Source: Bilabrum cf. latius (Eukaryota). From it: a stretch of 64,000 bases of DNA. A program made the position numbers and the translations under genes. The notes beneath the pieces were generated by a model. The model was given only the letters and a program-made list of their open reading frames with translations, searched no databases and was not told where the DNA came from. Location of the stretch: positions 930,001 to 994,000 of the forward strand of contig OZ237738.1 of NCBI GenBank assembly GCA_965178125.1. Direction: 5' to 3'. Below are positions 8,979 to 62,105 of this stretch, one piece after another. Numbering within the stretch: the stretch's first letter is position 1; each line of letters begins with the position of its first letter.

Positions 8979-9042
8979 AAGGTACGATGCTACGTACCCA
9001 TGCCTGGCAGGACCTTGATACTCGACTGCAGCACTTCGGAGG

Positions 9043-10380
9043 CTCTACGAGGCTGCATCCGCGGCTGCAACGGCTGCCGCGGGCAGCGGTGCGGGCGGTG
9101 CATACTAGGCTGGGCATGGCGCGCTGGCAGGCTTCCCCCCGGCGGGAGTGCGCCCCACGATCGACCAGTTTGAGCAGCGTGCCAAGGTGATGTCGAGCAA
9201 GGAGAAGCCCAAGCAGCTGACTGCCGTGGGCTCGGACGGTCGCAGGTACCACTTCCTGTGCAAGCAGGAGCTCTCGGGCGACTTGCGCAAGGACGCCCGC
9301 ATGATGGAGCACTCCACGGTGGTGAACCGGCTGCTGGCGTCGGACCACGAGGCCAGCAGGCGCGCGCTCCGGCTGCGCACCTACAGCGTGATCGTGACGA
9401 GCGAGAGCACGGGGCTCATGGAGTGGGTGGAAAACTGCACGCCGTTGCGCTTCGCCGTCAAGGAGGTCTACAATGACCTGGGAGTTGACAGTCCCATGCA
9501 CCTAACGCTCCGTGTCATGAAGCCGCTGCAGAAGAACCAGGACAACCAGAATCAGACCACAGCAGTCACGGCAAGGTTCTTCGCCTCTGAGGTGCAGCCA
9601 CAGTTCCCTGCGGTGCTGCACAGGTACCATCTGAAGCGCTTCGCTGACCCGGAGCGGTGGCTCCGGGCTCGGCAGCGGTTCACACGAAGCACGGCCTGCT
9701 GGGCCATGGTGGGCCATCTGCTTGGGCTGGGCGACCGCCACGGAGAGAACCTGCTGATGGATGACACGAGCGGGGATCAGGTGCACGTGGACTTCGACTG
9801 CCTGTTCGACAAGGGGCTGTCCCTGTCACGGCCCGAGGTGGTGCCCTTCCGCCTCACCGCCAACGTGCTGGATGCGATGGGCCTCTGGGGGTACGAGGGA
9901 GGCATGCGTCGGTCCAGCGAGGCGTGCATGGCGGTGCTACGTGCGAACGGGAGCACGCTGCTGGGCGTGCTGGAGTCCTTCGTGTACGATCCACTGGTGG
10001 AGTGGACTCGAAGCAAGAGCAAGGGAGGGAGGCACTCTTCTTCCTCGTCCTCCTCGTCCTCGTCGTCGTCGGCGGCCGCGGGTGGCGCGGTGCTGCCGAC
10101 CGACGAGGTGCCCAGCACGGCGGTGGGGGGCGAGGTGGAGAACATCGCCGGTGTGACGATTGTGAGGCACATCAAGGAGAGGCTGCGGGGAGGGTACAAC
10201 GTGCGGCCGCCGCACCGAGACAAGTACAACGTGAGGACGAGGAGGCACGCTGCGGACGATGGCAGGCTTGCGGGGGGTCGCACGATCGGGGTGCAGGCGC
10301 AGGTACACCGGCTGATCTCCGAGGCGTCATCGGTGGAGAACCTGGCCTAGATGTACGTTGGGTGGATGCCGTTCTTGTGA
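9043..10380 (+). pseudogene. ATR: 5'-truncated ATR/Mec1-like PIKK fragment (kinase + FATC domains)
   Basis: Motifs FLCKQELSGDLRKDARMME, LGLGDRHGENLL and HVDFDCLF. FATC end ENLA(TAG)MYVGWMPFL-TGA. The frame starts abruptly at a repeat-unit junction with no HEAT/FAT region. Confidence 0.8.
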
Positions 10381-34974: not shown

Positions 34975-36199
34975 GATACTCCTAAACGGTAGTGTTGATG
35001 CAACACGAGAGGAAACAAAGGCGGCGCGACGGTGCACGACTGCTGTAGTGGGCTAGGCTCTGGGAGGCGAGATGTCAACTTCCGGGGTTCCGGTTCACCC
35101 CATTCGCGGCGAACGCATCAGAACCATCCGTCACCAGGTGGGCACCCGTCCCGGATGGTAGTTGCCTACTAGCAGACATGATCCGCCCCGGATCCTCGTC
35201 CGCTCCCATCCGCGGCGGATGATCTCGGCGGGGACGATCTCGGCGCTGTCCGCCGCGGTTGGGAGCGGACCGCTGGTCACCGGTCCGCTGGTCACCGGTC
35301 CGCTGGGGATGGCAGCGGACGACGATCTGACAGCGGATGGTTATAGAGGCTACCATGCTCAAGTCCAGCCAGAAGGCGATCGATGGGACTCGACAGAATC
35401 ATACACTCCGAACGATCGTGTTTTCAAAACAGGCAGAACACTTGATCCAATGGTTCTAGAGTTGCTCGGCGGTGTGCGCGCACGATCCAGCATGTGCGTG
35501 TCCGTAGCATCCATCCTGGTACAAGGCCCACGATGCCCCGCACTGGGGACACAAGACATGACACGCCCTAACGGCACAAAAAATGAGTGTGAGTGGCGGA
35601 AGCTCAGATACGGCAGCACGTCTCGTGTGCTGTGGTGTAGCCTGCCTTTGCAGAACGCAAGCAGTTCTGTCGACTCTTCCTCTACTTCTGGTCCCTAACG
35701 TCACCACCTATCCAGCAGCAACGGTAGACCCATGACACTGCGCATCAAAAAAGCTCAGGGTGAAATCCAGTCTCTCACCAATCAGGACGATAGAGCAGAA
35801 CTTGTTCGATGGCGCGGTCGCGGTTCCGCAGTATCCGATCGGATTCCGGCGCCGCGACGAGCACTTGCTTTTCGCATTGCGCCACTCCAGAGCTCGCCCC
35901 AAGCTATATTTGAACTATCTCTAGCATTCATCTGTGGAATATAGGCCCATTAAAGCCAGTGAAGTCTCGAGAGGCATACTTTATCGAGACTATGGACAGT
36001 ACTAGGACGCAAGAGAGGAGTGAGCAGAACGAGCGAGCGTAGGGCTCTGTAGATCCAATGCACAGCAATGTTTCGTTCGTTCGAGTCTTGTACCGCACAT
36101 AGTATACCACACAAGATTGATGCATATCCTTCTGCGGGTCAAAACGCACCTAATCTTGCAGTTTGGGCGGCCGTAGGGTTTTAGGGGCTGATTGAAGCA

Positions 36200-38276: not shown

Positions 38277-39962
38277 TCACGCGCTACCGTCCATGAGGAT
38301 CTGCGCCACCTTGGCCCTCGTCTCCATCACTGCCATGGGGTCCTTCTCGAAGTTCGTCGGGCCCTTCACCACCTCCTGTGCCAGCTGCGCCACCATGACA
38401 GGGTTCTTCTTGGCAGCCAGCTTCAGCAGCTCCACGTCCTCAAGCCCGTCCCTAATGGTCTCGTACCGGATGGAAGAGATCGGGCCGTCCACACCGGGCA
38501 TGATGAACGATCCGTCGCCGTTCGCGAATACGTCCTGCCTGGGGTACACGATAAAATTGGCGGGATCCCACTGCAGCAGCCTGGGGTCGTTCTTGACGTT
38601 GCCGTCGGCCGGTGTGAGCGGGCGGGCGAACCCGTGTGGCAGCGGGTACGTCACGCCTACATCGTTCACGTAGCCGCTTACGAAAGACGGATATGGGCCC
38701 CAGTTGTGCCACAAATCCACGGCATAGTACAGCATGCCAGTAGCATGATTCTGCCACGACAGCCAGAAGAGCTGCCTGGCCTGCGCCAGCGGTCGCTCAA
38801 TGAACGTGTTCAGGTACCCCTCCTGATGCGGCTCGATGCACCAGTAGTTCCAGTACTCGTGGCCTGCATCCACCCACTCCTGCCGGAGCGTCTCGTTATG
38901 GAACTGATAGGAAATGACCCAGATGTCCACCGGGAGGTCAAGAGGGATGCGGGGCCAGTTGAGCACGGCCATCGTGCGCACCTCCGGATAGGCCTTCTTC
39001 ATCGCTCCGAACAGCTGCCTAATTTGCGGGATGCACGAGATCGGATTCTCGTCGAAGCCGTACGCGATCAGCTTGTCCGACAGCCCCTTCGCCCGCATCG
39101 CCTCCACAGTGGGCTTCACCAGGGCCAGCATCGCGTCCACGTACGCCTGCGAGTAGTTCGCGCACGACCCCTGCACACCGCCCGTGTGCACGCGGCGAGG
39201 GGCCGGCTCTCCAGTGAGGGCCTGGGGCACGCTCTGCACGTCGATGAGGTTGAGGTGCCGGGCGCCAAGGGAAGCAAGCAGCTCTAGCGTGTTTGCATGT
39301 CTAGGATGGGCCCGATAAATCATATCTCCCGGCATGCGATGGTCCTGTGTGAAGCGAGCCCACTGCTCCTGGACCGGCATGGGGGTTACGCTGGAGCCGT
39401 TGCCGTACAGCTTGTTGATATCGCCGCCCTCCAAAGCAAGTTCAAACGAGTTGCCGTATGCAGCAGGGTCCGAAGTTCGGGGGAGGAGAGCCGACAATAC
39501 ATGAACTTCGATCGAGATCGGTGAAACTCCAGCAGCTGTCACGTTCAACCGGTACGACCCTGGCTTTGTCGAGGGCTTGACATAAAAAGAAAGCCACAGA
39601 GCCTACGCAGCATTCTCCATTGCGGTATACTCATAGCTTCCATGGGATTCAGCTATCACCGCAGGATCCAACAAGGGCTCTGCATGCCACCCCGAGTTGC
39701 TGCCACTGTACCTGGTAGAGTACTACGTATAGACAAATCCAACCCTTGACACTGTGATCTCTAGCGGATCCAACTACCACGCAAAGTCTACAGTGGTCGG
39801 CCCCGACGTCTGCGCGTCAAGCATTATCTGCAAGGGCTCGGTTTCATTTAGCAGAACAAACGTTGTGATCGTTGACCCGATACCAATGTCAGCGCATGTT
39901 GAGTTCAGATTATACTTCAGCAAAGTAGGAATGACACAAGCCGCTAGGACTGTAGATGCCAT
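38277..39962 (-). CDS. Secreted DUF4091/GH123-like glycoside hydrolase, paralog 1
   Basis: Signal-like MASTVLAACVIP; motifs YGFDE, YWNYWC, GMLYY, NGDG and SSIRYETIRDGLEDVELL. One frame through TAGs at 39774, 39723 and 39603; ends in TGA. Confidence 0.75.
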
Positions 39963-40142
39963 TGTTGAAGGCTAAGTGTGAGGGAATGTAGTGTACCGGT
40001 AGCCGCAGATCGCCGGCGCCCCCGGGGCCCCGCCGCGACACTTTGCACAAGCAGAAAAAGCAAATATCATTTTCAACTGCACCGCCAGGACAAGCACGAT
40101 CACATCAGTGGCAGATGGTCTAACCAGAGACAGAGCTAGACC

Positions 40143-41819
40143 TCAGCCATCTATGAGGATCTGCGCCACCTTGGCCCTCGTCTCCATCACTGCAACGGGG
40201 TCCTTCTCGAAGTTCGTCGGGCCCTTCACCACCTCTTGCGCCAGCTGCGCCACCATGGCAGGGTTCTTCTTGGCAGCCAGCTTCAGCAGCTCCACGTCCT
40301 CAAGCCCGTCCCTAATGGTCTCGTACCGGATGGAGGAGATCGGGCCGTCCACGCCGGGCATGATGAACGATCCGTCGCCGTTCGCGAAGATGTCCTGACG
40401 CGGATACCAGATGAAGTTCGTCGGGTCCCACTGCAGCAGCCTGGGGTCGTTCTTGACGTTGCCGTCGGCCGGTGTGAGCGGGCGGGCGAACCCGTGCGGC
40501 AGCGGGTACGTCACGCCTACATCGTTCACGTAGCCGCTCACGAATGACGGATACGGGCCCCAGTTCCTCCATAGGTCAACGGCATAGTACAGCATGCCAG
40601 TGGCGTGGGTCTGCCACGACAGCCAGAAGAGCTGCCTGGCCTGCGCCAGCGGTCGCTCGATGAACGTGTTCAGATAGTCTCCATCTGATGGCTCGATGCA
40701 CCAGTACTGCCAGTACTCGTGACCCGCTGCCACCCACCGCTGCCGCATGGTTTCGTTGTGCAGCTAGTACTGCAGGACCCAGATGTCCACCGGGAGATCG
40801 TCAGGCATATCGGGCCAGTTGAGCACGGCCATCGTGCGCACCTCCGGATAGGCCTTCTTCATCGCTCCGAACAGCTGCCTCACCTAGGGCTCGCACGAGA
40901 TCGGATTCTCGTCGAAGCCGTACGCGATCAGCTTGTCCGACAGCCCCTTCGCCCGCATCGCCTCCACAGTGGGCTTCACCAGGGCCAGCATCGCGTCCAC
41001 GTACGCCTGCGAGTAGTTCGCGCACGACCCCTGCACGCCTCCCGTGTGCACGCGGCGGGGGGCCGGCTCTCCAGTGAGGGCCTGGGGCACGCTCTGCACG
41101 TCGATGAGGTTGAGGTGCCGGGCGCCAAGGGAAGCCAGTAGTTCCAGAGTGGCGGGGTCCCTGGGGTGAGACTGGTAGATCAAGTCTCCCGGCATGCGAT
41201 GGTCCTGGGTGAAGCGAGCCCACTGCTCCTGGACCGGCATGGGGGTTACGCTGGAGCCGTTGCCGTACAGCCTGTTGATGTCTCCGCCCTCTATACTTAT
41301 CTCGAATGAGTTACCGTACGCAGCAGGGTCCGAAGTTTGGGGAAGGAGGGCTGGAAGAACGACAACGTTGATTTGTATAGCTCCGACTCCATCTGCAAAC
41401 AGTTGCACAGGGTATTTCCCAGGCTATGCATTCGCCCATGGCTTAAATGATATCCAGAGAGCCTGGGGAGCACCAGACATAACTAGAAACGAGTAGTTGC
41501 CGCCGTTCGGTAGCGTGGATTCGGGCTCCAGCAAAGGCTCAGCATGCCATCCGGAGTTGCTACCGCCGTACCGCGATGTGTACTGCGTGTACACGAAGCC
41601 AACTCTAGCAACCTACATATCAAAGGCCTCGTTTGGCGCAGTGAAGTTCACAGTGGCAGTCCCAGTGGCAGATGGCTCAAACAGCAGCTAAACTGGCTCG
41701 GTTTCGTTCTAAAGGGCGTAAACGGTCGTTTCTGCTCCGATTCCGATGCCTGCACACGTATCATTGAGATGATATTTTAACAAAGTAGGAAGAACGCAAG
41801 CAGCCGCTAGAGCCACCAT
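40143..41819 (-). CDS. Secreted DUF4091/GH123-like glycoside hydrolase, paralog 2
   Basis: Colinear with paralog 1. In-frame TAGs at 40764, 40884 and 41688 align with Gln codons of paralog 1; ends in TGA. Confidence 0.75.
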
Positions 41820-41976
41820 GTTGGCAAGTGTGTTTACGAAAACAAGGCATGTAGATCCAATGCGGAACCATGGCTGCTCTGTTCGCGCGGCGCCTCTCGT
41901 GATGCAGCAGGGCAATCTGGCTGCACTGCTCTTGCCGCCCGAGAGAGACGAACACGTCTCTCTGCAGGTGCGGCAC

Positions 41977-44900
41977 ATGCAGATCTCTTCAGATACTCTT
42001 ACCAAGAGCGTGCGCGATGCTTTGGACGCAAGACTGAAGGTGGGAGAGTCGATGACGCGCGAACTTCAACTGCCGTTCCCTCTTCGATTTCACATGTTCT
42101 CGAACGATTCTGCCCGCCCTACTGTGTCTGCTGTCTTTTGCGCAGGGAGAATAGGCACCTTTTGAATACTTAGTCCTTAAGCTGCGACAGGCTTCTGTTG
42201 ACGGGACTCCTGCGCGCCTCCTGAAGGCCTTGACTGTATGTGCTCCCACGCTCGCTCAAGAGCCGGAGGTGTTCAAGCCAATCATCGATGAAGTTTTGAA
42301 TTCTCCAATGGCGCATTTGGTTGAAGGGGTCAGACACGCTAACACAGCGCAGTCGTTCGAGTAGGCGGCCCAAAAGGCCCGAGAAGCAATGCGTCCATTG
42401 CTGAACTTCCTTGCCGGCTTGGTATCTGTCAACTCCGCGCTGCTTCCCTCGGTATTCCACAGCATAGCGCAAAAACTGTTACCGCGAGAAGGAGATGGAT
42501 CAGAAGACAGCGATGATGAAGACAGTGAGGACGACGAGGATGAAAGCAATGCCAGCAACTCTGGTGCTGCCAACCCCGGCTCTGCTGCTCCTCATCTCAC
42601 CGTGCGGCGATTACGGCGGAGAGCACGGCCATGGGAGCGAGAGGAACCTCGAATTGAAGGACTATACGGCTGCACGCACAGCTTGCTGATGCTGGTCCCG
42701 ACTGGACTACCCGCCCTGTTCGAGGCCCTGCGCGCCTCCTTTCCTCATCGGCGGCACGGCGTGCACACTCACCGCGCGTACACCCGGCGCCTCTTGCGGC
42801 TTGCTCAAGCTCTTCCAGCACTTGAAGATAGACTGCTATCGATTGTGATAGACCGCATGGTAGACATAGACGTTGAAATTTCGATTCGGGACGTGGACGA
42901 GCAGGAGGAGGCCGCACGGGCTCGAGCTGGGTCTCACGACGGAACCGACGGCGGCGTCGCCGTCGCGCACATCGAGACGCTTGCAGACAAGCTCGACGTC
43001 ATGATCGAACTTGTGTTTCAGTACCTAGACGAGAAATGCGGGGCCGATGCAGGCGTGGCTGGAGTTGGATGCGCTGAGCAACACCTTCCCAACTCTGCCG
43101 TGGATCTGCCGGGTGCCTCGCAGCCCGGTGGTGCCGTGGTACCCGCCGGGGGAAGGCATTCGTCCCATTCTGGTAGCAGCACCAAGGGGGCGCAGGGCAA
43201 CCAGAAAGAGCTGCTGACTCGCCGCAGGAAGCATGCGCTTGCCCTCATCCTGGCAGTGTTTGAGCGGTCAGTCCTTCCGACGTACAAGAGCCGGTTTACG
43301 CAGTTTATCGTCTTTTATCTCTGCCGACTCTCCGCTTCCATGGCAGACACGTTTACTGGCAGGATGATCAACAATTTGAGGAACAGGACGCTTCCCATGG
43401 TGATCAGGGTAGCCTGCGCCAGCTACGTGGGTTCTTTCCTCGCTCGGGCCAAGTTCGTGGATGACTCCACGGTACGGTCTGCCCTGTTCTATCTGCTGGG
43501 TTACGCGCATAGGTTCTTGGACGAATCGGAATAGAGGCAGCTGGCGGAGTCTGCGCGCGCTGCCAATGCAACGGGCGGCGTGGGAGGCAGAATGAGAATC
43601 GGGCCTGACGGGGAATCCATTCGGGTGTCGCCGGGCGCGCGCGGAGGCAGTGGCCAGCGGCTCTACAGCCCGACCGTCTTCCTCGCGGTATGCCAAGCTT
43701 GCTTTTATATCGTTGCGTTCAGGGCGCGATCGCTGGCGCAGAGTCCAGAAGCTCTTGATTTTCTTCGTCAGCTGCGGTTCGGTCGTGTGGTGTCGAGCAG
43801 AGAGGACCCCCTGCGGAGGTGCCTCGATTCTGTGAGCCGAGAGTTCGTCCGTGTTGCCATCAATCTCCAGCTAGTCACCGACCGCGAAGTTAGGCAGAGC
43901 GTGGCAGGGCCGTCCTTGCTGGTTCTTCCCGAGGACTCTCTTGTGTCCGAAGACGATGATGACGATGACGATGAGGACAGCGACGGTGGAAGCTCAGGCT
44001 CTGGCGAAGGGAGTGACAGCGAGGATTCGGGGTCTGAAAACGATTCCTCTGATGACGAAGGTGAGGACGAAGGAAATAACAAGGCACATGGTTAGATCCA
44101 CCCTAGCAGGATCCAGCCCTAGAATGCCCAGCAAAGATCGGGTGTGCATGCTATGGGTCCGTAGCGGCAGGCCAGCATCACATCATCGCCTATCGTCCCG
44201 CTCGACATGGATGGTACCAGCACGGGATCGGGCGTGTCCAGACGGAGTGGCAGCTCAGGATCGGCTGGACAGGACGTCGCAGGCGGCGCGCTCATGCTTG
44301 GCCACGACGACCACCGGAGCGTGTCGGCTGCCCCGGCCCCTGGCAAAGATTCGGATATCGCCGTAAGGCTCATCTAGTTCAGGAGCGATAGTGGTAGCAG
44401 CATGGCCGCATCATCACGGGCTGAACTGCGCACTGAGCGATCCACCACGCCGACGGGCCGCGAGGCGGTGCGCAGCCATGGGGGCAACGGCGCCAGGTTG
44501 GGTATTGGGGGTAAGGGAGGCGCACCCGCACCGTCCTCGTCCTCGTCCATGGCATCGCAGACCTAGTCGCTTGAGCAGCTGAAAGAGTACTTCCCATTCG
44601 ATCCCTTCCGGCTGCGTCGATCCAGGCATTTCCTTAAGGGTCTCTACAGGAAGTGGGAAGACGTGGAGCTCAGGGACGAGGACCTGCCAGAGGACCTGAG
44701 GGAGGCGCTGTATGCCGGCATGGAGGATGCTGCCTCCCATGCGTACGCTTCGGATGAGGGCGGGATGGATGACGAGGACGAGGACGGGGAAGAGGACGAA
44801 ACGCCTCACCGGGGCGCGATGCATCGAAGAGGGTCGATCGGCAGCGCATCTAGCGCGGGAAGCGCTCGATCGAAGGGCCAGCACAGCCGGCGCATCCGGT

Positions 44901-46336
44901 CAGAAAGCATGGCAGGTGGCGTGGGGTTCTCGTTGCAGGAGGACGAGGAAGACCTGTCGGAATCCAGCGGAGGCACCCCTGTGGCTGCACGAGCTGCAGC
45001 AAAGGCGCTTGCAGAGGCACGCGGCAAGGGAACAGGACATGCCAGCGCCAGTGGCAGCGCTCGAGCAGACCGCCGCGCCGGCTCCCACGCGTCTCACAGC
45101 GGCGCCGAGAGCCTGTCAGCAGCGGAGCTGTCCGCCGACATGGCCAAGGAGGCGGAGGGCCTCGGCAGGGTGGGTCGCACCCTCGACCAGCTGGGTCACT
45201 CCCAGGCCACGTACACTGAAGCCATGCGGTCGAGGATTGCCGAGATGGGCGGGCTCGAGCACGTGGATCCTCTTAGCGACCTGGACTCCGGCGTCGCATC
45301 GGGGTCGGCCGCCGAAGACATGAACGGGGGCTCTCAAGGGCGTGCCGCGGCGAGCAGTGGGGGCGGCGAGGTCATGTACGAGCTAGGTGGGGCGGGTGTG
45401 ACTGTGGACGAGCTGGGGCTGGGGTCTCACTCCGCAGACAAGGCGGCCATGCTGAGTGCTCACTTAGAGGGCGTGACTGGGGGTGTCTTGCGGGCCGATG
45501 CGCGGGCTGGATAGGCTAGTGGCCGCTCCGCAGGCGGTGGGGCCACGAACAGGCAGCGCGTGGAGGAGCGGATGGCGAGGGCGGCGCGCAGGCAGCAGGT
45601 GGTGCGGCAGGCTCTCGCCGAGGAGGACTCGGATGGACGGAGCCTTGAGCCATCGCCGCTGCTAGGCCCCGCTGGTTCACCGCTGTCCATCCCGGCGGGG
45701 TCTCCGGGCCTGAAGGCCGGCTCAGCGGCGGCTTCGAGACACGGTGGCGGCGGGGGAGCTCTGCCCCCATTGAGGATCGAGGCGGCAGCAGCCGGCATGG
45801 CGAGGACAGAGGAGGGCGAAAGCGGATACCGCCGGGCGAGTATGACGGGCGCGTGGCCCTCTGGTGCGGCTGGGAGTAGCTCAGGAGCGATGGCATCGAG
45901 CAAGAACGGCGCGGTAAGCTCTGGTGCTGCTGCGGGCACCGCGTCATCGTCGGCTCATGTTGCAGCTGGAATGGGTTTGCATGTACCCGGCCGCATGGAG
46001 GCGGATGACGAGCTTGCGGTAGGGCTGAACCAAGGACACGCCTACCATGCCAGCAGCAAGGCTTCGGTCAAGTCGCACATCTCCGAGCCGCCGCCCATGC
46101 ATGAAATGGCGTGGCTGCTCTCAGCTTCCACCGTGGGAGCGAGCACAGGTGCGACGAGCAGGCACACGTCCGGTGCTGGAATTGATGGATAGGCTGTAAG
46201 GGTGCCGTCAAAGGCTGGTACAAAGAGGCCGAGGCCGGTGCCTGAAGCGAAAGCTAAGGAGAACGATGGAGTTTCGGACGCAGCAGGCAGATCGCCCGAG
46301 ATCAGGCAGAAGCAGAAGAGAGCTAGGAAGGATTGA
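41977..46336 (+). CDS. RRN3: RNA polymerase I transcription initiation factor RRN3; intron ~42040-42144; start uncertain
   Basis: Motifs DRMVDIDVEI, ADKLDVMI, LPTYKSRFTQFIVFY, ASYVGSFLARAKFV, CQACFYIVAFR and YFPFDPFRLRRSRHFLKGLYRKW lie in one frame across ~10 TAGs; ends in TGA. Confidence 0.85.
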
Positions 46337-46823
46337 TGCGTGACAATGGGCCGCTGATTGGATGACCTGATACACCCGTAGTCTTGCATCTTTGCATTGT
46401 CTTGGCTCAAAGAATCACCACATACAGCTCTGTTCATGTGTGACTCGGAGGCATCCCCAGGTCCGATCGGAGCAAAACACCTCGTGCAGCCGTTGCACGG
46501 CACACCTTGTCGAGTCTAAGGCAAAGTTGAGGCGCTTGAGGTGAGTCAAGGCCGGAACATAGCAGTGTTTTCGTTTGAGATCCATGCCCAGGACAATGAG
46601 TACAGCTGAACCCCTGCATGCGTCCGGTTCTTACACTGTCACAATGACGCGCCTTTTATGCCGAATTTCGACTTGAAGTAGCTATTATTGCACCCAAAAA
46701 AGCCTTACATAAAATTTATATGGTTATACATAGCTTGTCTGGCGGAATGGATCCTCGATGCACTTCTATCGTGATCTTTTTGGAATGGCACTGTGGATCC
46801 TTCTTCGCATACACCCTCACAGG

Positions 46824-49157
46824 ATGCAACTCACCACATCAGCAGCTCAAGTTTTGGCGGCTGGAGCCTTTATGGGCAGCATAGCTTTTGCTACGACGTG
46901 CGATATGGCAGGAGACTGGCTATTCGTTCCTGGGCCCGGGGTGGACAGCTCGAAGTTCTACTCAGCGGTTGACATCCCCGGGCCAGGGCATACCGGCAGC
47001 TTCAACTTCACCTTCGGGATTAGGCACGGCCCGCAAACGGTGCCAGGGTACATCGATGCAGACAACGCTGTCACCATTAAAGTTACCGACACGGACACGA
47101 TCAACGGGCAATTTGCTTCCAACTGCAGCTACATCAACTGGCAGCCGAGCAGCGGGAAGCAGCAGTACAATTTCGGCGCCGCGTGGTGCAGGGCATGGAC
47201 TCCTGGCTGCAACTACGTCAAGCCACCATACATGAAGGGCTTCGCTTTTTGGGGCACCTTTGGCGACTACATGGTGCTGCAGCAGGCCCCCCAGCAGGCC
47301 GCCGTGTACGGCATGGTCTTCGGATCGGACAAGCCTCAGGTGCAGGTCGAGGTGCAGGGGGACGATGGCACCAACTACATGGTAGACGCGGAGATCAACA
47401 CTGTGAACCAGCCGTTCGGACCTGGGTTCGAGTACCCATGGCCCTACCCAGGCCCTTTCACAACGTGGAAGGCCCTGCTGAAACCTCACGCGGCCGGTGG
47501 CAACTTCCGGATCACCTCCCGCTGCCTCAACTGCGTGGACAGAGACCCCATGTTCAACGCAGCTAACATCTCCAACGTGACCTTCGGAGACGTGTGGTAC
47601 TGCAGCGGGCAGTCCAACATGTGGCTCCCTGTGGGCCACAGCTTCGAGCGCAACAACACGGTAGATGCCATTCACGAGGGCCAGTACAACAACATCCGGA
47701 TCATGGCCGGCAACTCCGGAGACCAGTCCGATGGCATCTTTAACCCGTGGATGACCGCTGCACAGTCTGTTGTGGACCCCAAGGGCGGGGTGAACTATCC
47801 CCTCTTCCAATTCGGGGCAGCGTGCTGGTACTTTGCGCAGAAACTCGCCGACGAGCTGCAGAAGGCGGGCAAGTCCGTCCCCATCGGCCTGGCCGACACG
47901 GCTGTTGGCGGGCAGAGGATCGAGGAGTACATGGACAACACCACCATCAGCCAGTGCACGGACCGACTCGGGGAGAACATCCCCCAGTGGGACGGGCCCC
48001 TGTACGGCAAGCTGGTTGTGCCCTTCCTGGACATGACCGTCAAGGGGTTCCTCTGGTATCAGGGAGAGAACAACATGGGTGGCACCAAGGGCAACTCCAT
48101 CGCCAACGTGGGGTACGGCTGCGAGATGGTGCATCTCGTGTCTGCCTGGCGCAAGAACTGGAGCAAGGTGCCGGGCACCACGGACCCGGACGCTCCCTTT
48201 GGCATCGTCACCCTAGCATCGAGCGGCTCCGAGGGCGGGCCAAACATGGGTGCCATGCGCTGGGCGCAGACGGGGAATTACGGGGTGTTGCCCAACCCGC
48301 TCATCCCCAACAGCTTTGTGGCGCAGGCCTACGACCTGGACGACCCCTGGGGCCCCAATGCCGGACCGTGCTTCGAGTGGCAGTGCTGCGAGGCCTGGCA
48401 CGCCAAGCAGAACATGACCGCGTGCAACATTGGCACCAACAACAACCCCAAGATGTGCGACCTCGCATGCGCCGGCGCCGCTGACACTACCCCAGTTATG
48501 GGCGGGATCCACCCGCGGGACAAGAAGCCTGTGGGTGACCGCCTTGGGCTCGCTGCGTACAACACCGTGTACGGTGGACAGGGGCCAACCACTGGACCCA
48601 CGCTGTCGGGCTGCGCTGTGCAGGATGGCTCGCTGGTGGTGCAGTTCAACCAGACGATGCTAAAGGGAGACACCGTGATCATCCAGCCGTACAGCCAGAC
48701 CCTCAACATGTCCTACCTCGAGGTCATGACGGACCCCACCATCTTCTGCGTGGAGGTGCGCAAGAGGAACGAGTCATGCCGCTCCGACTGCGAGCTGTAC
48801 TGCCCAACCTGGGCGGGCGGGTCCTCCATCACCAACAACTCGGCGCTCAACGGACACGACTCCCAGGGCTGGCAGCCCCTCAACATCTCCATGGCCGGAA
48901 GCTCGGCCATCAAGGCAGACCTGTCGCCTCTGGGAGAGCAGCCACCTGTCGCCGTGAGGTACGCGTGGGGCCTGTCCGAGTGCTGCAATAAGACTGACCC
49001 CGACCTCTACGTCAAGTACCCCTGCGGACCCGCCCCTTGCCCGCTCATGCTGGGCTCCAAGTCATTCCCGGCCAACCCCTTCATCGCCAAGATCAAGGAC
49101 GGCAAGTGCGAGTGCATCGCGCCTCAGACCTGTGATGGGTCCGTGGGACATGCTTGA
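46824..49157 (+). CDS. Sialate O-acetylesterase-like (SASA/SGNH) secreted protein
   Basis: Motifs FGDVWYCSGQSNM, KGFLWYQGENN, IHPRDKKPVGDRL and PVAVRYAW; signal peptide; uninterrupted ORF ending in TGA. Confidence 0.88.
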   Translation: MQLTTSAAQVLAAGAFMGSIAFATTCDMAGDWLFVPGPGVDSSKFYSAVDIPGPGHTGSFNFTFGIRHGPQTVPGYIDADNAVTIKVTDTDTINGQFASNCSYINWQPSSGKQQYNFGAAWCRAWTPGCNYVKPPYMKGFAFWGTFGDYMVLQQAPQQAAVYGMVFGSDKPQVQVEVQGDDGTNYMVDAEINTVNQPFGPGFEYPWPYPGPFTTWKALLKPHAAGGNFRITSRCLNCVDRDPMFNAANISNVTFGDVWYCSGQSNMWLPVGHSFERNNTVDAIHEGQYNNIRIMAGNSGDQSDGIFNPWMTAAQSVVDPKGGVNYPLFQFGAACWYFAQKLADELQKAGKSVPIGLADTAVGGQRIEEYMDNTTISQCTDRLGENIPQWDGPLYGKLVVPFLDMTVKGFLWYQGENNMGGTKGNSIANVGYGCEMVHLVSAWRKNWSKVPGTTDPDAPFGIVTLASSGSEGGPNMGAMRWAQTGNYGVLPNPLIPNSFVAQAYDLDDPWGPNAGPCFEWQCCEAWHAKQNMTACNIGTNNNPKMCDLACAGAADTTPVMGGIHPRDKKPVGDRLGLAAYNTVYGGQGPTTGPTLSGCAVQDGSLVVQFNQTMLKGDTVIIQPYSQTLNMSYLEVMTDPTIFCVEVRKRNESCRSDCELYCPTWAGGSSITNNSALNGHDSQGWQPLNISMAGSSAIKADLSPLGEQPPVAVRYAWGLSECCNKTDPDLYVKYPCGPAPCPLMLGSKSFPANPFIAKIKDGKCECIAPQTCDGSVGHA

Positions 49158-49328
49158 GAAGGGTGCCGCTGTGCTGCGTGCTTTCGTGCATCTGGATCCC
49201 CGGAAAGCAGCATCCGGACTAGTGTGCTGCCTGGTCCGACTACATCGTGGATGCACTGCGTACTTTTGTTTGCAACTGACATGATGCTTCGCTTTTCAGT
49301 CGTCAATAGGTGCTCTCCAAGTCTGCTT

Positions 49329-52300
49329 TTACTATGCTGGTGCGAGTGCCACGGGAAAATGATCCAAGGCATGCCTTCTGGCTGCTTCCTGCATGGCATG
49401 GGCGAGTGCTCGGCCTTGCAGAGCCCATCCGGATCCTTCGTCAGTGTGTCGGGTGTTGCTCGTGGCGTCGTTCTAGGAAGGTCGCGCGAGGGCTTGCACC
49501 AGGCTATCGACAGCCTCCCGGCGGATTGACACCGTACCAGACTTCGCATTCTATTCCTTGCAATCTCCTGGCTGCCACCGTGACCAAGCGGAAGCTGTCG
49601 ATGTGTTCTCTAAGCCGACCGATAGTTGCCCTGGTCTGCACATTCCTTGCCGAGATAGCCACCTGCTCGAAGGATTGTCGGCAACGACAACACGGCCACC
49701 AGCGGTGCAGGTCTCAGCCACTAGCAGGCCATACCCCTCGTGCATCGCCATGGTTGCCACCGATGACGAGAAGCGCATGAGGGAGGGCAAAATGTAGTCG
49801 CCAGCAAGCATGGACTCGCCATCAATAAGGATTGAGCTTCCACAGCACTCCGTAGATTGCTTCTAGAGCATGCCTCCCACACCAGTTACATCACGCCCGA
49901 TGTATACAAGAGCATGATGCTACTGTGAACCCATCCGTGCATCACTACAGCTGCAGTGAGCCGCAGTGATTGCCTCACCAAGCTTGTAGCCCCTCTGGGG
50001 GCCAACTGCGAGCAAAAAACTGTCTCCAGCAGCCAATAGTTGCATCAGCTACTGCTCGGACTTGCGCGGGTTGCCGAACAAAGCTGCCGCAAAAGCTCCA
50101 ACTATTCGGCTAGCCGCGACGATCGGATCTGTAGAAAAGTGCCAGCGATTGGCAGAGTTCGAACCAACTATAACGACCGGTAGGGCATCGCTAGTGCGGG
50201 TAACATCGATCGGGAACTGAAATGCGTGCAGATCTGACGCCGTCGACGGTGAAGCGGTCAGCACGACAGAAGCGCTAGACAGAATGCTTCGCTTCGCTGT
50301 CACCTCGCAAGTGTCGTGACTCCAACAGAGTCGCTCGGGCGTATAGTCGTGGATAATCTGCACAGACGGCACTGGCTAAGACGGTGACTGAGGCTGCTGC
50401 TTGTGCCTGAGCGTAGTTAAGACAGCTGGCCAGGGGCCACCGCCATGGGACGCAGCTGCATAGTCAATTCCGTCTGACCCAGGACCCCATCTGACGCCGA
50501 AATGATTTCCACTGGATGCTGCCAGGTACAATGGGTCCAACCAATGCGGGTGCTGAGCAAATGGGAAGCCATCTAGGAATGATTTGTCTTTATTCTGAGG
50601 CAGCTTATCGAGCAGCAGATGCAAGCTCGATCCAGCTGGCAGCGTAGCAATGGCCAAGGGAATCGCGCTGCACCACACCCTTGATATTCCGCTAGAACAA
50701 CTGGAAGGGGAGGCCCCATGCTTGCTGAGGTATGGTCCGTTGCACGGCTGTGCAGAGCTATTGCTAGCACCTCCGAAAGGTACGCCCGAGTCATCAACGA
50801 CCCAACGCAAAGACCCGACGTCCTGCGCAACAGATGGACCTGACGATCGCTGAGCAGCCCGATCTCGTTGCAGCCCGAACAAAATACCCGGCTCTGTGTC
50901 TGAAGGCAGCGGGAGAATCGTGCCGAAATTGACGAGGGCTGCCATAGAAGCCGGGACAGCGACGGCAGCCGAATCGCACTGCAGCTTCTGTGGCGACGTC
51001 CATGGGAGCATCTCGTGTAGCACACCAAATGACTCATTCAGATGCGACTAGACCGATGCGGCAATCGCACATGTGTCTTGCAGCCCTATCGAACCAAACA
51101 GCGTCTCCAGTCCGTGAGCACTGGCACACAGACTCTTGCGGATGTCACTTAGGGGGCCACCAGTCTCATGGCCGTACCGTGTTGCCTTTTGTCTTATTTC
51201 ATTTAATGAAGCGTACACATGGTGCGTAAACTCGACGCCGTATCGGTGGAGCGACTCTTCTTGCGGCATGCATCTGGCTTGACTGGGCGATATGCCACGC
51301 GCTTCGTCCACTGCGTCCTGCAGGCTCACAGGCCCAGAGACAGTCCACCCTCGAGTTCGTCTCTAGCCACCTTCACAACGCTTCCATTGTTCGACTGCAA
51401 GGGCGGGAGGTGCGTGGTGCAGCCACACGGCATTCGCGTAGAGAGGCACGGCAAAGACCCTGGCCCACTCCTAGTGCCGACGGGTGCCCCAGCTCGTCTG
51501 CTCGTGCCAGCCACATGCCGCAGCGCTATCAGTGGTGCCATACCACTGCTGCAGCACAGAGCTGTTGCATTGATTCTACCTGGAAGTGGACGATATATGG
51601 TGGGAGAATCGCGCCAGCTAAAGCACTCTGGACCGCGGCACCGCCACTACTGCGTCCTGCTTGCCAGGGGTGCACTCGGGAACAATCACCTAGTGCGCAT
51701 GCACCATCGCACACCCCAAATGCCGTTTGTGTAGAGTCATTCCAAGCCTAGCAGCCGCAAACATCTTTGATGGGGACCATAGCTCGTCGGCATCGAGCTG
51801 CAGCAATGTGCATTGGCCGGTGGCGACCCCCCGAGCTCGCAAGGCATCTAGCGCGATCCACGTGCCGACGTTTGCCATCGTGCGCTTATCTGCCCACGCA
51901 CCAGACAATGAGCCGACTAAAGCACCCATCATTTGTAGCGCATCCACGGCAAGCTGCAAAAGTGCTGCTCGCAGTGCGCTGAACGCTGCTGCGTCACGGT
52001 GCTGCTTGTTGGCGGTCGCAGCCACAAGCCGGTCGAACTCCTCGATTGCAACAACAGGAGCGCAGAGACTCGGGGCCAGCCACCGCAGAGATGTCGGCAC
52101 AGATGTAGATACACCGCGGAGCCCGCGATCCCCGATGTGGCTACGTTGATCCCTGCCTTCACTGCCATGGCTAGTATCGGTGCTGCCACCGTGCTGCGAA
52201 TGCACTAGCACAAAACTGTAGCAGAATCGCTACAATACACGAGTGGCTTCGCTCGCAGACGGTCCACGTCCACTACCATAAAGAACGGCAGCGAGCCAGC

Positions 52301-53270
52301 CGCTCCTTTGGACCTCGTGCAAGGGTGGGCGCGCGACATGGATGCGTCTGCGCGGCCTGTCCCTGCGGACATGAGATCTCGGCGTGCCGGGTGGTCCGCG
52401 CCGCGGCAATGCGGCGGATGCATCCAGCCACTCAGATGTACCGTCGGAAGAGAGCCCTAGGACTGGCCATCCTCTCAATCTGTCCATGCTCGCAGCCAAA
52501 GAGGGGTCCACCCTCCCGAGCTCCTCCTCCGGGGCGCGACCCCCGGCGTAATTCGACTCGCCCCCTGCAGCCGAGGAGCTATCTCGCAGCCACTCGCCCC
52601 GCTAGGCCCGTCCAGCGGCATACCCTTCTACAATTACCCACGTCCAATCGATTCCAGGGGACGGCAGCGAGTGCAGCGTTCTCCAATGGTGCGGCAGGAA
52701 CTGCCTTGCGTTCAATGCCAAAGTGACCGCTGCAAGGCAAGCGTGGGTGCTACTCCGGTTGTGTGGGGGAGACCGGGGTATAACGGCCTCCTACAATCCC
52801 AAAAGAAGCTATCTAGACAATGGTGAGCGGAGCTACTCGGCCCGAAGGACATCCCGGCCGAGCTACCGGGCGTTGGGATGTGGCAGGCCATTCAATGCAC
52901 GACTGAGCCCTGCCGCTGTTGCAACTAGCTGCTCTCGAGTTGATGCATTGCTACACCAATGCGGAAACGACAAAGAAGCCACTCGTTTGGCCGATTCATC
53001 GGAACTGCTACGCACACAATCTAGCAATGTCTGGATCGCGAGCATTCTAGCGCGATTCGCTTGGACAAGGGTTTCAACCTGTACTGTTAGTTTCGATCTC
53101 AATAAAAAATGCTTCGAATGATCCGTCTCGGTTCGAAGCACTGCCAAAGAGGAATTCTGCAGCGTTGCAGTCGATCTTGGGACGGAATTCGAGCTTGGCA
53201 AAGGTATCAGTCGGCCTCCAGAAAGTAACGCAGTCATCACGACAATAGCTAGACGTATACCGAGGTACAT
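49329..53270 (-). CDS. Large signal-anchored protein with a GT-A glycosyltransferase-like domain (~1310 aa)
   Basis: Seven track ORFs share one frame and the gaps contain only TAG. Motifs MYLGIRLAIVVMTALL, AVTLALNARQFL, WVIVEG, SSDGTSEWL and LLQLDADELW (DxD). Ends TAG-TAA at 49334-49329. Confidence 0.6.
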
Positions 53271-53886
53271 ACTATCACATGTTGCTTTAGCACCGGGCAC
53301 GCGGAAAGTGAGTTGCCAAGAATGTGCGACCTCAGACCATAGCACGCTGCAGTTGCACTTCACGCGACGCGCTCGCCACCCGATTAGTCCATCATCGACG
53401 CCCAATGCAAATGCAGAGTAATCATTGCCATGTGTGTGCGACTTGTGGCATTTGAATCAACGTGCCTGCGCGATGGCACACCTTGACACTGGTCGCTCCT
53501 GCTCGAGCAATCACGAACTGGCTCGCGGCCACAACGCCATCTCTCCCGGCATGTGCTTCAAAGCCGTGTTAGTATCATATGCATACACGTTGCACGCTAG
53601 CGTATCACATCACCATACGAACTGAAGCTATCGGTGCCTCCCCGCGAAAGCCGTGCTTACATAAGGCCTCAAGGCGCGCTCCAGACTGGCCAAGCACCTA
53701 TCGAGGCTGCCTGGCACACGGGGCAAGGGGCCCCTTGCATTGCTGCGATTCCGGCTTCCTGCGATTCCATGTTGCGTGTCATTGCACGCCAATGCAGATT
53801 GCCACATTCCCCAGTCGCTCCTTGGACGCCTCATTCCTGAAGTCGCTACCGCACCCACGGCCGCCTACTGCAAGCCAACGACAAGC

Positions 53887-55280
53887 ATGAAGACCGCCAT
53901 CATCGCAACCATCGCAGCTTACACTGCCATGGCTGCAATCACCGAGGACCGCATGGCCCAGTTCGCGCAATGGGCCGCCCAGCACGGCAAGACCTACGAG
54001 GGCGAGGAGGCCCACCGCCGCCTGGAGATTTTCTCGGCCAACGCCGAGGCCATCGAGGAGCACAACGCCAAGGGCCTGTCGTGGACCATGGGCCTGAACG
54101 AGTTCTCTGATCTGACGAACGAGGAGTTTGCCGCCATCTACACAGGAGGCTTCAAAGGCGCCTCCCACAACGTGAGCGACCTGGCCAGAGTCGCTCGTCG
54201 GACCCAGGGGCAGGGCAGCCTGCCGCCATCGGTCGATTGGACCGCAGCAGGTAAGAAGTAAATGGTATTATGATTGCTTGCGCTTGCTAGCATTTGAATC
54301 CTGGTCCTGGAACACTCAGTTCTTGGACCGGCCAGTCTGGTGTCCGAAGTTGACAGAAGTCGAATTGCCACCTGAGCATTTCGTCCCCCCTAGAGGGTAT
54401 CATGGGACGATGTGTGCTGTTGATCCTAGTAATCATGTCATATCATATTGATTGTGTGTGCTGTAGTGCAAGTGTCCATCCGCTAGCGAGATGATGGTGA
54501 TGTGGCCTAGATTGGAATGCTTGGCGAGATGGTCAACCCGGCCGAACACGTGCTCAGCAAACTAGCCGCCGCGCCATGCACCCATGATTATATTTATCGC
54601 GATTATCGGATTGATTTTCTGTTTCCGCAGGTGCCGTCACACCGGTGAAGACCCAGCAGAGGATGATGTGCGGGTCCGACTACGCATTCTCTGCGGCAGG
54701 TGCCATAGAGGGCATCGACTTCATCAAGAACGGTGGGCCGGTCACCAGCCTGTCCGTGCAGCAGATCGTGGACTGCTCTGGGCCGTACACGAACAACGGT
54801 TGCGGGGGAGGCACCATGATCATGAGCTTCCACTACGCCCAGCAGGTCTTCGGCCTCACCCACGACGTGGACTACCCCTACACCGCCCAGGATGGCACCT
54901 GCCAATGCAATGGCATGGTGCCTCCATGCCTGGTGCGAGTGCCAATCACGACGTTCTCCACCGTGCCGAGCGGGTCCGAGCAGGACCTCATGGCAGCCGT
55001 GGCCAGGCAGCCCATCTCCGTGGCGGTCTCTGCCCAATCGCTCCACTTCCAGAACTACCAGAGCGGCGTCATGACGGCCGCATGCGGCACCCACCTCGAC
55101 ACCGGCATGCTGCTCGTCGGCTATGGCACCCTCAACGGGCAGGACTACTGGAAGGTCAAGAACCAGTGGGGCACCACGTGGGGCGATCAGGGGTACATTT
55201 TGCTGGGCCGGGGGCCTCAGTTCGGGGCTGCTGGGCAGTGCGGGATCCAGATGGATGCGTCATACCCGGAGATCCTGTGA
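53887..55280 (+). CDS. Papain-family (C1A, cathepsin L-like) protein with catalytic residues substituted; intron 54251-54630
   Basis: Signal peptide and I29 propeptide (GLNEFSDLT). Motifs LPPSVDWTAAG|AVTPVK, LSVQQIVDC, GCGGG and YWKVKNQWG. CGSDYAF and LDTGMLLVGYG occupy the active-site positions. Confidence 0.9.
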
Positions 55281-55779: not shown

Positions 55780-58700
55780 TCACATCTCCTGCCGGCTCCC
55801 AGACTGCGACGATGTGTAACCATCATCGATGTTCCACGCATCGGACAAGGAACTGTCCGTGTGACCCTTCCCTGAAGAATGGTCAAATCCTAAATGGGCC
55901 ACCGAAGCAGCACGGGAGGAATCATGGTCGCCCACCTTGCTCCTTTCAGCCTCTTGATGCTCCACCCGCTACAGGACCTCCCACCCGCGAGCCGGCATCG
56001 AGGACTGCCTCCTCAGTTCGCGGCGCGCCTAGGTCTCGTGCGAAGCCCCCGCGCCAATGCCTGCCGAGGCATTATTCCCGTGGCTCACCCCCCTTCGACT
56101 GGCAGACCGCGCCCTCTCGCCTCCGTGGGGAGCACCCGCCGACACTCGGCCTCGGGGGCCCATCGCCACCCCGCCCGGGGCAGCATTCGCTCCAGCACCG
56201 CTGCCAATCCCTGCCCCGCCGCGCGGCGATGACCTGCGAGCCGCCTTGTCTAACTCCCGCACATCTCGCTGCCTGGTCCTGTCGCGCACAGCCGCAGACC
56301 TCCTGGCAGAGATGGACACCGTGCTGGCCCGCCGCACCAGCCCCCCTTCGTTCGTGGTGATCCCCGCAACCGCACGCCCGCTGGCCTTGCTGCTGCTCTC
56401 GCTCCTACCGTGGGTTCGGCTGGAGGCACGCGGAACATTCGGCCGAGAGGCACTGTTTTGGCGACTCCCGGGGCGAGACAGGGGCGCGATGGATGCCCTG
56501 CCGCGGCGAGAAGGGCCAGGGGACCGAGACCCATCCGCCGGCAGCACTGCTGGACGTAGACCCAGCGGCGCGCTCAGCATGACCACGTCGGCTCCGTGCG
56601 GGTCAGGGCTGCTGCCACGGCTCTGCGGTGACAATGAGCTGTTGGCTTTGGCAGCCACCATGCTCACGCCGTTGCTGTCGGTAGCAGAGTCAGTCAGGCC
56701 ACGCGCCGTCGGTCTCTTGGTGATCCTGGGACCCAGCTTTCCTGGCGGCGGCGTCCTGCGCTTGCTGCCTCGAGTGCCCCCGGTGGACACCGGCCCCACC
56801 ACTCGATTGCTCGCCCTAGATCGACTGCTAGACCGAGAGGACACCATCTGAGGCGCATGGCCACCGCGGGATCTTCGGCTTCGCTGCTGGCCGAGGCTAG
56901 TCGCCTGCTCCTGCTGTTGCTTGCGCTCCTCACTCTCCGCTTCGCGCCTCTGGCGCACCGCCGACTTGAGCCTAGCGATCACCCGCAGACCCAGGCGCCT
57001 CATGTGCCAGTCCTCGGCCGCATCCAAGGCAGTGCGCTCCACCGCCACCACCTGCACGTACCTGACCCACCGTGCAAATGCCTTGCTTTGCAGCCTCTCT
57101 CGCTGCATGTTCAACACCCACATGTCAAGCTGCCTAGCCCGTTTAGCCTCTTTGGTGGCGTCCAGCAAGCGGAAGAACTCTACCCGAGTACGTCGTAGAG
57201 CCACCTTCCGCGCGAACATCTCCCAGCGGAAGGTTCTAGAGTGCCAGCCACGCAGGCACTTGCGCACAGATGTGAGCTCTCTGCGAACCAAAATCCTCTC
57301 CGCTGCGTCTCTTGCACGCTTCTTGAGCGCCACGTGGTGCGCGAGTCCCACCCACGCGCCTCCCAGGGACACCCGCCTGCGGAACACGTCGGCTACTGCG
57401 GTGGCAGAGCGACCCCATCTCCTGTTCCTGCTCCAGCGCCTCCAGAACTGCAGCATCTCATGAGTGCGCACCCGCCGGAGAGCAACCTCGAACTTGAGCT
57501 GCAAAGCACGCACACCTGCAGCTCGCTTCGCTTCTGCCTTCCAAGCAGACATGGCTCGGCTGCATATTGCCCGCGCGTGGTGTCCCACAGCAGCCCGCTC
57601 GAGGCGGGCCTCGTGCGCCGTCGCCTTGAAGCCCAGCCACCCGCTTCGATAAAGCCTGAACCGGGCAAACAACCTCGCCCGCTCTGCTTTGTCCCTCGCG
57701 TCCTGTCTTTCGGTAGCAAATTCCAGCAGCGAGTCCACGCCCCTGCGGAGGGACCTCTCCCGCTTCCAGGCATGGAGCCGGTGCTCGCACTCCTGCAGCC
57801 TCAGCGCCTCTTTCCACAGGGACCAAGCCGCCGACACTAGCCTGCCAGCGCGACCAGCCGACGCGACCACTCCGCGGGCTCGCAGGCTCACCGTGACCGC
57901 TGCTCGTCTCCTCCACAGCCGCAGGGCCCGCCGCTCTGACCTGAGCTCGAATGCCCGTGCGGCTGCCTTGTCGCGGATCCTGTCCATGGCAGAGTCGCGC
58001 CACGCGCAAAACACGCGAAGCGTTAAGCGGAGGCCATGGTAGATACCGGCGTCCACCATCTGCAGCCGCTCCCTCGCAGTTTCGGCTGCGGCCCCCCTCC
58101 AAGCGTTGAAAAACCGCCTGGCCGACCCGCGCTGCACCTTCTGCATAACCCGTCTTATAAGCTTTGTCTTGTGCGTGCGCCTTCTCCACCGGCCCACGAG
58201 CTGCTTTGCGTGCCTGTGCACGTAGTAGTCTTCTGCAAGCTTGTGGAGCTGCTTCTCAGCGCGCTATGCGGCCGTGTACTGCACCCAGCGCCTCACGTAA
58301 TCCCGCCCTCTATGGACAAACAAGAACACGTTCGCATTCCTGACCCGCCTGCGCTCCTCGCGCTCAGTGGACACATTCAGAGCCAGCTGCTGGATGGCCA
58401 GAGCTGCCTTGCGCCGGAAAAAGTGGCCGTGAGCAAGGCGCATCGCCGCTCGCTGTTGCTGGCATTCCTTCGTCGCGACATTCCAAACGTTGAACTGCTT
58501 GCGCACGAGTCGCTCTCTGCGCCAGATGGTCACCGCTCGCAGTGCGCGCCAGTTCGCGAAGATCTTCGTAAGAAGGCGGCGGTTGCGGTGCTGAGTTGCC
58601 CTGGTCAAGGAGCACCATCGGCGCAGGCTGCTGGAGGCAAGGATCCTCATCTTGGGGCGAACGAAAGCCACGAGTGCGCGCCTCAGCTTGAACTGCTGCG

Positions 58701-61479: not shown

Positions 61480-62105
61480 TGTGCGGGTCTTTCGGCTTTC
61501 CACGATGCAGGTATCGGCTTCGTCAAGTAAACCAGCCGAAACGTAACCTAATTCACCGGGTGATTATGGTATTGGTTACCAACATCAGATTATTGAACAT
61601 GTGCTCGGATTTGCTGTATAATTCAGATCCATCAATGAATACACACGCTACTTTCATAATATATGCACCCTACTAATTGTTGCTGAAATATCTGGTTTTG
61701 CGAGAAACAACGGATCTTGGTGCTCATGGTGGAGTTGATTGTCGCAGATTGATCGGGTCTGGCAGCTTCCCTCGCAGTGATGCAAGCCTGTGCGCCGATA
61801 TCGCTTCAGAGGGTACCCGACGCGAACTAACCAGCCCAGCATGACTGATGTCAAAGGCTTGTTTGGCTTTGTCCTGTGCCGCCGTCGTCGTGCATACAAG
61901 CACAGCCCATGCGGTATCCAATTCATTTTGTTGAGCCCACCAGGCAAGCCCGAGCAAGCTGGGATACCTTCTAACGAGCGCCAGACTGTGTATAGATTGA
62001 GCGTTCGACTTCGCCGCGTGTCGCCGTTCATCCTTTCCCACCATGTTACACACCACTACCTTACTCCCTTCCCCCGCCCCATGCACGCCCCGCTAGGAAT
62101 TGCAA

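Follow-up and report, generated by a model that had tools for sequence, protein, structure and literature searches.

The window analysed here, which forms the whole sample of this analysis, is a single stretch of 64 kb (positions 930,001 to 994,000 of contig OZ237738.1, assembly GCA_965178125.1, Bilabrum cf. latius). It is nuclear DNA of a GC-rich, intron-poor protist, with a guanine-plus-cytosine (G+C) content of 61% and, when TAG is read through, Pfam matches to eukaryotic nuclear genes. Our subject is the meaning of TAG, TAA and TGA in these genes, and in particular the end of one minus-strand gene, which we call big49k. From its first listed start codon (TTG), big49k occupies 49329..53405 and comprises 1358 codons, 19 of them TAG, within a frame that is open over 1375 codons. 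On the minus strand its 3' end reads ...GCA CCA GCA TAG TAA AAG CAG ACT TGG AGA GCA CCT ATT GAC GAC TGA. The TAG (49332-49334) would be the last sense codon, for glutamine, and the TAA (49329-49331) the proposed stop; the next in-frame TGA (49296-49298), which would end the gene if TAA were read through, is the 11th codon past the TAA. The preliminary description of this DNA had reported a gene end of just this form, and its coordinates are correct. The gene converges on the last exon of a sialate O-acetylesterase-like gene (SASA; 46821..49157, plus strand; PF03629), which contains no TAG and stops at a TGA (49155-49157). Further genes on which the argument draws are RRN3 (42144..46336, plus strand; PF05327, E 1e-81; stop TGA), a two-exon cathepsin L-like gene (53884..55280, plus strand; PF08246 and PF00112; intron 54247-54626), two GH123-like paralogues (38277..42065, minus strand) that contain 3 and 6 TAG in their coding parts and each stop at a TGA, and an ATR-like PI3/PI4-kinase with a FATC end (9019..10380, plus strand), assigned by Pfam, of which the kinase and FATC parts only are present (453 codons).

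UAG is a sense codon in these genes. With the standard stops the longest open frames of the window have about 800 codons, whereas reading through TAG yields frames of 1267, 1375, 1426, 1446, 1927 and 2281 codons. The number of open reading frames (ORFs) of at least 300 codons then rises from 26 to 49, and the longest lengthens from 807 to 2281 codons; a gene caller set to the standard code would break the genes of this genome into pieces. RRN3, PBP-like, GH123 and ATR domains are found on the read-through ORFs (1267-2281 codons). Our main codon count covered 21 coding stretches (46,308 nt; 15,436 codons) and found 90 TAG, 0 TAA and 0 TGA in the reading frame; an earlier count of 19 stretches and 15,012 codons also gave 0 TAA. 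In the remaining two sense frames of this DNA there are 102 and 108 TAG, 42 and 40 TAA, and 285 and 203 TGA, and the three antisense frames pooled hold 299 TAG, 106 TAA and 598 TGA. The in-frame frequency of TAG is thus that of the background, whereas TAA is shut out as fully as TGA. The preliminary description had seen no in-frame TAA in gene bodies and had proposed that UAA is decoupled from UAG; the counts agree with it on both points, and it is well supported that UAA is not a sense codon here and has parted from UAG.

Could the absence of TAA be a consequence of how the frames were bounded? When ORFs were bounded by TGA alone and TAA was then located within the gene-bearing frames, it occurred at codon 29 of 637 in the zinc-finger gene b and at codons 2 and 6 of 1934 in the gene at 55780-61503, each time upstream of the start; at codon 11 of 826 in SASA, inside an RNA-supported intron (46539-46820); and at codon 1375 of 1386 in big49k. 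Because TAA lies just at the extreme ends of these TGA-only ORFs, the zero count is not circular.

The preliminary description had also allowed that high G+C might hide a rare sense use of TAA, in which case the code would be of the ciliate type (NCBI table 6), with UAA and UAG both read as glutamine. Table 6 is the commonest stop-codon reassignment in eukaryotes, and TAA is scarce in the window as a whole (337 on both strands, compared with 896 TAG and 1622 TGA). However, if TAA were a synonym of TAG, the ratio of A- to G-ending codons in each gene predicts 17.0 TAA (from TTA/TTG), 29.8 (from the Gln, Glu and Lys pairs) or 35.8 (from CAA/CAG), and none is observed; hence, high G+C is not hiding sense TAA, and this proviso can be dropped. 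The same codons use CAA 133 times and TTA 21 times, and by hand arithmetic, even if the lowest ratio (TTA/TTG, 0.127) is assumed, all 88 TAA-or-TAG codons would be TAG with a probability of about 6e-6. The search for internal TAA at glutamine positions, which the preliminary description had named as a finding that would refute it, was run and found none in 15,436 codons. With 88-90 TAG in frame and about 40 TAA in each other sense frame, we see hardly any chance that a table 6 code applies.

Which amino acid does UAG encode? The alignments point to glutamine, with moderate rather than complete support. At the 10 TAG sites in the alignment of the GH123 paralogues, the partner has glutamine five times, leucine twice, and proline, threonine and lysine once each; one of the two leucine sites lies upstream of the start methionine. 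In the FATC part of the ATR-like protein, the TAG nine codons before the C-terminus (masked as X) aligns with a glutamine of human ATR (LLCQMYLGWTPYM). Likewise, glutamine stands opposite TAG in two well-conserved blocks of big49k, at residues 572 (...HAHqVI...) and 645 (...RRHqEWAR...). On this reading TAG makes up 90 of the 662 Gln-type codons (13.6%), and at least one TAG occurs in 15 of 20 coding stretches. Its share is lower where the G+C content of third codon positions (GC3) is at least 0.75 (10/133, compared with 80/529 elsewhere; Fisher p 0.023), and SASA, cathepsin exon 2, the aldo-keto reductase (AKR), the zinc-finger gene a and the O-methyltransferase contain no TAG. TAG could therefore be a non-preferred codon, as far as its distribution in these genes suggests.

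The TAG codons are retained in what we take to be transcripts. Contigs of the runs X5, X6 and X7 skip GT..AG introns that the DNA run X2 keeps, namely 42038-42143 in RRN3 (joint 42037>42144) and 54247-54626 in the cathepsin L gene (joint 54246>54627), both in all three runs, and 46539-46820 in SASA (joint 46538>46821), in X7 only. We infer from these joints, absent in X2, that X5, X6 and X7 are RNA, although 0 of the 11 runs is recorded as such, and that the genes are transcribed and spliced. In the spliced RNA-type contigs the TAGs of RRN3 are unaltered (records 9 and 23; 0 differences), as are those of the gene at 55.7-61.6 kb in RNA-type contigs (records 14 and 19-22; 0 differences). A related organism offers a view of the same codons from the outside. 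Its ORF fragments are 73-86% identical to big49k and break at big49k TAGs: the fragment P0001 has its last residue at 1118, P0004 covers 1121-1161, and the TAGs lie at 1119 and 1162. To judge from the alignment, this is the pattern expected of a standard-code gene caller working on a relative with the same code. These data bear on the suspicion that the in-frame TAGs are an artefact of pseudogenes or assembly errors, or that UAG is edited to CAG in transcripts. Several long ORFs lack a Pfam family, and beyond this nothing specific speaks for an artefact. The frames of up to 2281 codons under TGA and TAA stops are far beyond chance, Pfam domains span the TAG sites, the TAGs persist with 0 differences in spliced RNA-type contigs of three runs, and the breaks of P0001 and P0004 fall where big49k has TAG. 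We consider an artefact the least credible of all the explanations weighed here.

UGA is a true stop, judging by the genes whose C-termini can be aligned. The C-terminus of the ATR-like protein (...GWMPFL) matches that of human ATR (...GWTPYM) up to and including the final residue, after which comes TGA, and the cathepsin L-like protein ends 5 residues past the conserved ASYP, again followed by TGA. In the window, 19 of 20 gene ends are TGA and one is TAA; with the zinc-finger and GH123 paralogues counted once, 15 of 16 ends are TGA. The preliminary description was therefore right that every other gene ends in TGA. Its proposal to tabulate terminal codons at conserved C-termini produced TGA for the ATR FATC and cathepsin L ends and no homology-fixed TAA end. 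A Pfam scan of 150 extra ORFs in the unannotated stretches contributed one gene, a MraW-like methyltransferase that extends past the edge of the window; the number of gene ends stayed the same. Does the dominance of TGA call for a special cause? In 17.7 kb of non-coding DNA, TAA makes up 149 of the 684 TAA and TGA triplets (22%; TGA 535), and under this composition one TAA in 16 independent ends has a p of about 0.1 by hand arithmetic; hence, the near-exclusive TGA ends need no special explanation.

A second in-frame TGA lies 2-7 codons past the stop at five of the 20 ends (ATR, 10378-10386; the RING-type gene, 26094-26102; AKR, 33580-33591, minus strand; the gene at 16-20 kb, 20501-20521; and RRN3, 46334-46357), whereas the TGA rate of the non-coding DNA predicts about 2. 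Selection for tandem stops may be the reason, as is reported for ciliates with reassigned codons (PMC6879139). No back-up TAA was found within 7 codons at any of the 20 ends.

Of all reading frames in the window, the only one that closes with a TAA is that of big49k (49329-49331). This TAA is covered with 0 differences by a DNA contig of X2 (record 4) and by an X5 contig of another study (record 11). The SASA end lies 138-171 nt from the end of big49k, and an X5 contig runs colinear with 49073-53295 and shows no joint; a further big49k exon is thus unlikely. By hand arithmetic, if TAA were a sense codon used once in about 15,000 codons, the chance of meeting it within 11 codons of the end of one of the 20 genes would be about 1.5%, whereas, if TAA is a stop, the chance of a TGA within 11 codons downstream is about 15%. 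The comparison favors the TAA as the end of big49k. The protein itself matches no Pfam family. A HMMER search with its last 700 residues against 1.84 billion representatives returned 8 matches, among them P0007 (960 amino acids) and P0008 (347 amino acids); presumably, the C-terminal part is akin to GT1/GT4 glycosyltransferases, whose E-G-x-G-L...E-A motif we recognize in these two. A near-length word search for homologues of the tail gave none, and a query with the last 160 amino acids gave one match, P0002. On the transcript side, in two studies the RNA-type contigs that cover SASA (record 18 of X6 and record 25 of X7) break off at 49298, a weak hint of a SASA 3' untranslated region of about 141 nt (49158-49298) that overlaps the end of the convergent big49k. 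Contigs of X2, X5, X6 and X7 contain no transcript end for big49k, where the cover by X6 and X7 is 0-3, and contig ends cannot locate the end of translation.

The adjacency of TAG and TAA at the end of big49k would also fit a context-dependent code, in which UAG would be glutamine inside genes and a stop near transcript ends, the dual role that all three stop codons have in Condylostoma; big49k would then end at the TAG with the TAA as a tandem back-up. Stop codons with a dual meaning do exist in other protists, according to the accessible part of one report (PMC5304391). Yet none of the 19 other ends needs TAG as a stop, the homology-fixed C-termini of the ATR-like and cathepsin L proteins run straight to TGA, and TAG is as frequent in frame as in the background, the weak dip at high GC3 being the sole sign of competition between its two meanings. 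Codes in which the stops are context dependent or all reassigned, as in Condylostoma, Blastocrithidia and Amoebophrya, are also at odds with the 0 in-frame TGA or TAA in 15,436 codons. We regard a context-dependent UAG as very improbable.

A different reading of the same gene end is that UAA is avoided and effectively unassigned, with UGA alone terminating translation; under this reading, big49k would have acquired its TAA recently, as a nonsense or tolerated change in a tail under weak constraint, or ribosomes would slowly pass the codon and go on to the TGA. TAA is absent from the frames and stands at 1 of 20 gene ends, five ends are backed by another TGA no more than 7 codons away, a distance at which no end has a TAA, and the tail of big49k past residue 1345 has no homologue support. 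However, one TAA in 16 independent ends is in line with composition (p about 0.1), ribosomes would stall if a transcribed gene had an unassigned codon 11 codons ahead of its stop, and the TAA is identical in the contigs of two studies. In addition, the published UAG-only codes of eukaryotes all keep UAA as a stop in the available portions of the two articles concerned (PMC5304391, PMC11687900). We therefore judge an unassigned UAA to be unlikely. Most likely, UAA is a rarely used stop, a conclusion drawn from one gene end. For the preliminary description, which had called UAA a rare stop, this means that the exclusion of a sense role stands, while its service as a working stop still depends on big49k.

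We thus arrive at what we consider the probable code of this GC-rich, intron-poor protist nuclear genome: UAG is a third glutamine codon, and UAA and UGA keep their meaning as stops. We hypothesize that a tRNA-Gln with the anticodon CUA reads UAG only, because this anticodon cannot wobble onto UAA, and that the release factor eRF1 has lost UAG and still recognizes UAA and UGA. G+C pressure and the scarcity of the TA dinucleotide would keep TAA rare genome-wide, and UGA would stand at nearly all gene ends for this reason. In the window, big49k would be the one UAA-terminated gene, with the UAA directly after a Gln-coding UAG. The codon set proposed for eRF1, with UAA and UGA accepted and UAG rejected, corresponds to that of bacterial RF2, which reads UAA and UGA; the analogy would be one of specificity only, as eukaryotes have a single eRF1, unrelated to RF2. 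Among the genes of the window there is no eRF1. A tRNA scan of the window (ARAGORN; Rfam, 58 bits) found a single tRNA, Ile(GAU), at 22092-22164 on the minus strand. Eukaryotic nuclear genomes usually carry tRNA Ile(AAU), and the anticodon may be worth a look. A looser ARAGORN run with introns allowed returned 37 'genes', their introns reaching 2.7 kb, which we treated as noise; 0 of these 37 calls in the window had a CUA, UUA or UCA anticodon.

Several observations weigh against this code or lessen the force of the evidence for it. With regard to glutamine, yeast Mec1 has a lysine at the FATC position where human ATR has its glutamine, and all 22 aligned residues opposite TAG in big49k together are a mixed set (glutamine 4, arginine 4, alanine 3, tryptophan 2 and the rest once each). 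The four zinc-finger and two GH123 genes are paralogues, and so the codons and gene ends counted are not all independent. UAA as a stop is seen at one gene end only, and termination there is deduced from the frame. That TAA (49329-49331) is the single candidate for a UAA at a homology-defined C-terminus, and the tail beyond residue 1345 lacks homologue cover: in the word search, the tail query and the HMMER search no homologue reaches the last 13 residues of big49k, and the relative's fragment P0002 ends 13 residues before the end, at a standard stop codon. The data do not separate a rare stop from an avoided or unassigned codon. Finally, the spliced joints are the sole ground on which the runs were typed as RNA.

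UAG and UAA almost always change meaning together. As far as the accessible text of two reports goes, few nuclear lineages split them, and UAA is the main stop in all of these (PMC5304391, PMC11687900). A code with UAG as glutamine and UAA and UGA as stops is already known; the pattern is that of NCBI table 15 and is known from Iotanema, Hartmannula and Trochilia. In Iotanema spirale (Fornicata), the available part of its description gives nuclear UAG as glutamine and UAA and UGA as stops that never occur in frame, on the basis of 730 alignments, calls UAA the 'predominant' stop and proposes, as a hypothesis, that a T32G change in the GTS motif of eRF1 led to the dropping of UAG (PMC5304391). 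The window resembles Iotanema in that UAG alone is reassigned, and to glutamine, and that UAA and UGA are absent in frame. It differs in that UGA ends 19 of 20 genes here, probably in its supergroup, and in scale, with a 64-kb window here and a whole transcriptome there.

The phyllopharyngean ciliates Hartmannula sinica and Trochilia petrani also read UAG as glutamine; in the consulted sections of the article on them, UAA makes up 91.9% and UGA 8.1% of the stops in H. sinica, and UGA 13.1% in T. petrani (PMC11687900). In these species, by the same partial account, UAG is a minor-to-middling glutamine codon (18.5% and 31.8%; 13.6% here) and occurs inside most genes (78-84%; 15 of 20 coding stretches here). 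In contrast, the stop proportions are reversed in the window, and the genomes of these ciliates are AT-rich whereas the window has 61% G+C. The article further lists, in the text available, three TARA ciliate metagenome-assembled genomes with UAG as leucine and suppressor tRNAs in relatives with UAG as leucine (PMC11687900). UAG is leucine as well in Rhizaria sp. exLh (Sainouroidea), in which 71 genes end with 56 UAA and 15 UGA, according to the accessible text (PMC5304391). As far as that text describes exLh, it shares with the window the decoupling of UAG from UAA and the retention of UAA and UGA as stops; unlike in exLh, UAG would stand for glutamine here, with leucine at 2 and glutamine at 5 of the 10 paralogue sites and glutamine at conserved sites.

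Our literature search found no described stramenopile or heterotrophic flagellate with in-frame UAG, within a coverage that left out most subscription journals and supplements. It is conceivable, though we would put it forward only tentatively, that the window documents an independent new origin of the UAG-to-glutamine change in a GC-rich heterotrophic stramenopile-like protist, the first outside ciliates, fornicates and rhizarians, with UAA driven near extinction by G+C pressure and termination left in practice to UGA alone. A GC-rich lineage that has the split between UAG and UAA and works with UGA as its stop would show the split to be independent of heavy use of UAA, and would offer another base composition under which to study how eRF1 can reject UAG and keep UAA.

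The source lineage is probably a stramenopile, a placement that we offer as a lead only, based on the ATR domain. The best named relatives of this domain are stramenopiles (Cafeteria, 48%; Phytophthora, 45-46%; Discosporangium, 45%), and a single-gene ATR tree, from a quick search only, put the window sequence beside Cafeteria and unnamed sequences without resolving its position. Two protein-atlas queries, both readable with the standard code, contributed no usable taxonomy. A metagenome scan with the zinc-finger protein recovered no further contigs of this organism; it gave 19 pattern matches and one marginal locus (L001, 56% over 25 residues).

The remaining genes identified by Pfam include four paralogous C2H2 zinc-finger genes within 1-12700, a RING-type protein, a PBP-like domain on a 2279-residue membrane protein, the AKR, SpoU-, O-methyltransferase- and MraW-like methyltransferases and a MazG-like protein. 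The zinc-finger paralogues consist of 87-bp (29-residue) repeats, with 8.5 to 13.6 units each, and all end ...RHTRGCH TGA. The ATR-like ORF sits among them. Upstream of it no N-terminal part was found, so that it may represent a truncated copy, or the gene may have distant exons. Inside the RING-type gene, at 23680-24046, (GAGCAG) is repeated 61 times and gives, in frame, a Gly-Ala run of about 120 residues. An 85-bp tandem repeat at 20765-21599 (9.8 copies, 98% matches) is open in all three plus-strand frames, contains one TAG per unit and has no Pfam match, and resembles a satellite more than a gene. A short minus-strand ORF at 34780-35094 reads like the N-terminal exon that the AKR lacks (VLGFGSWQLADP), set apart from the main exon by an intron; its score is below the Pfam threshold. 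Lastly, at 47402-47801 and 53771-54349, in the SASA and cathepsin genes, the runs X2, X5 and X6 also contain contigs of another set, which differ at 8-18 bases per stretch and suggest an allele or a closely similar second copy.

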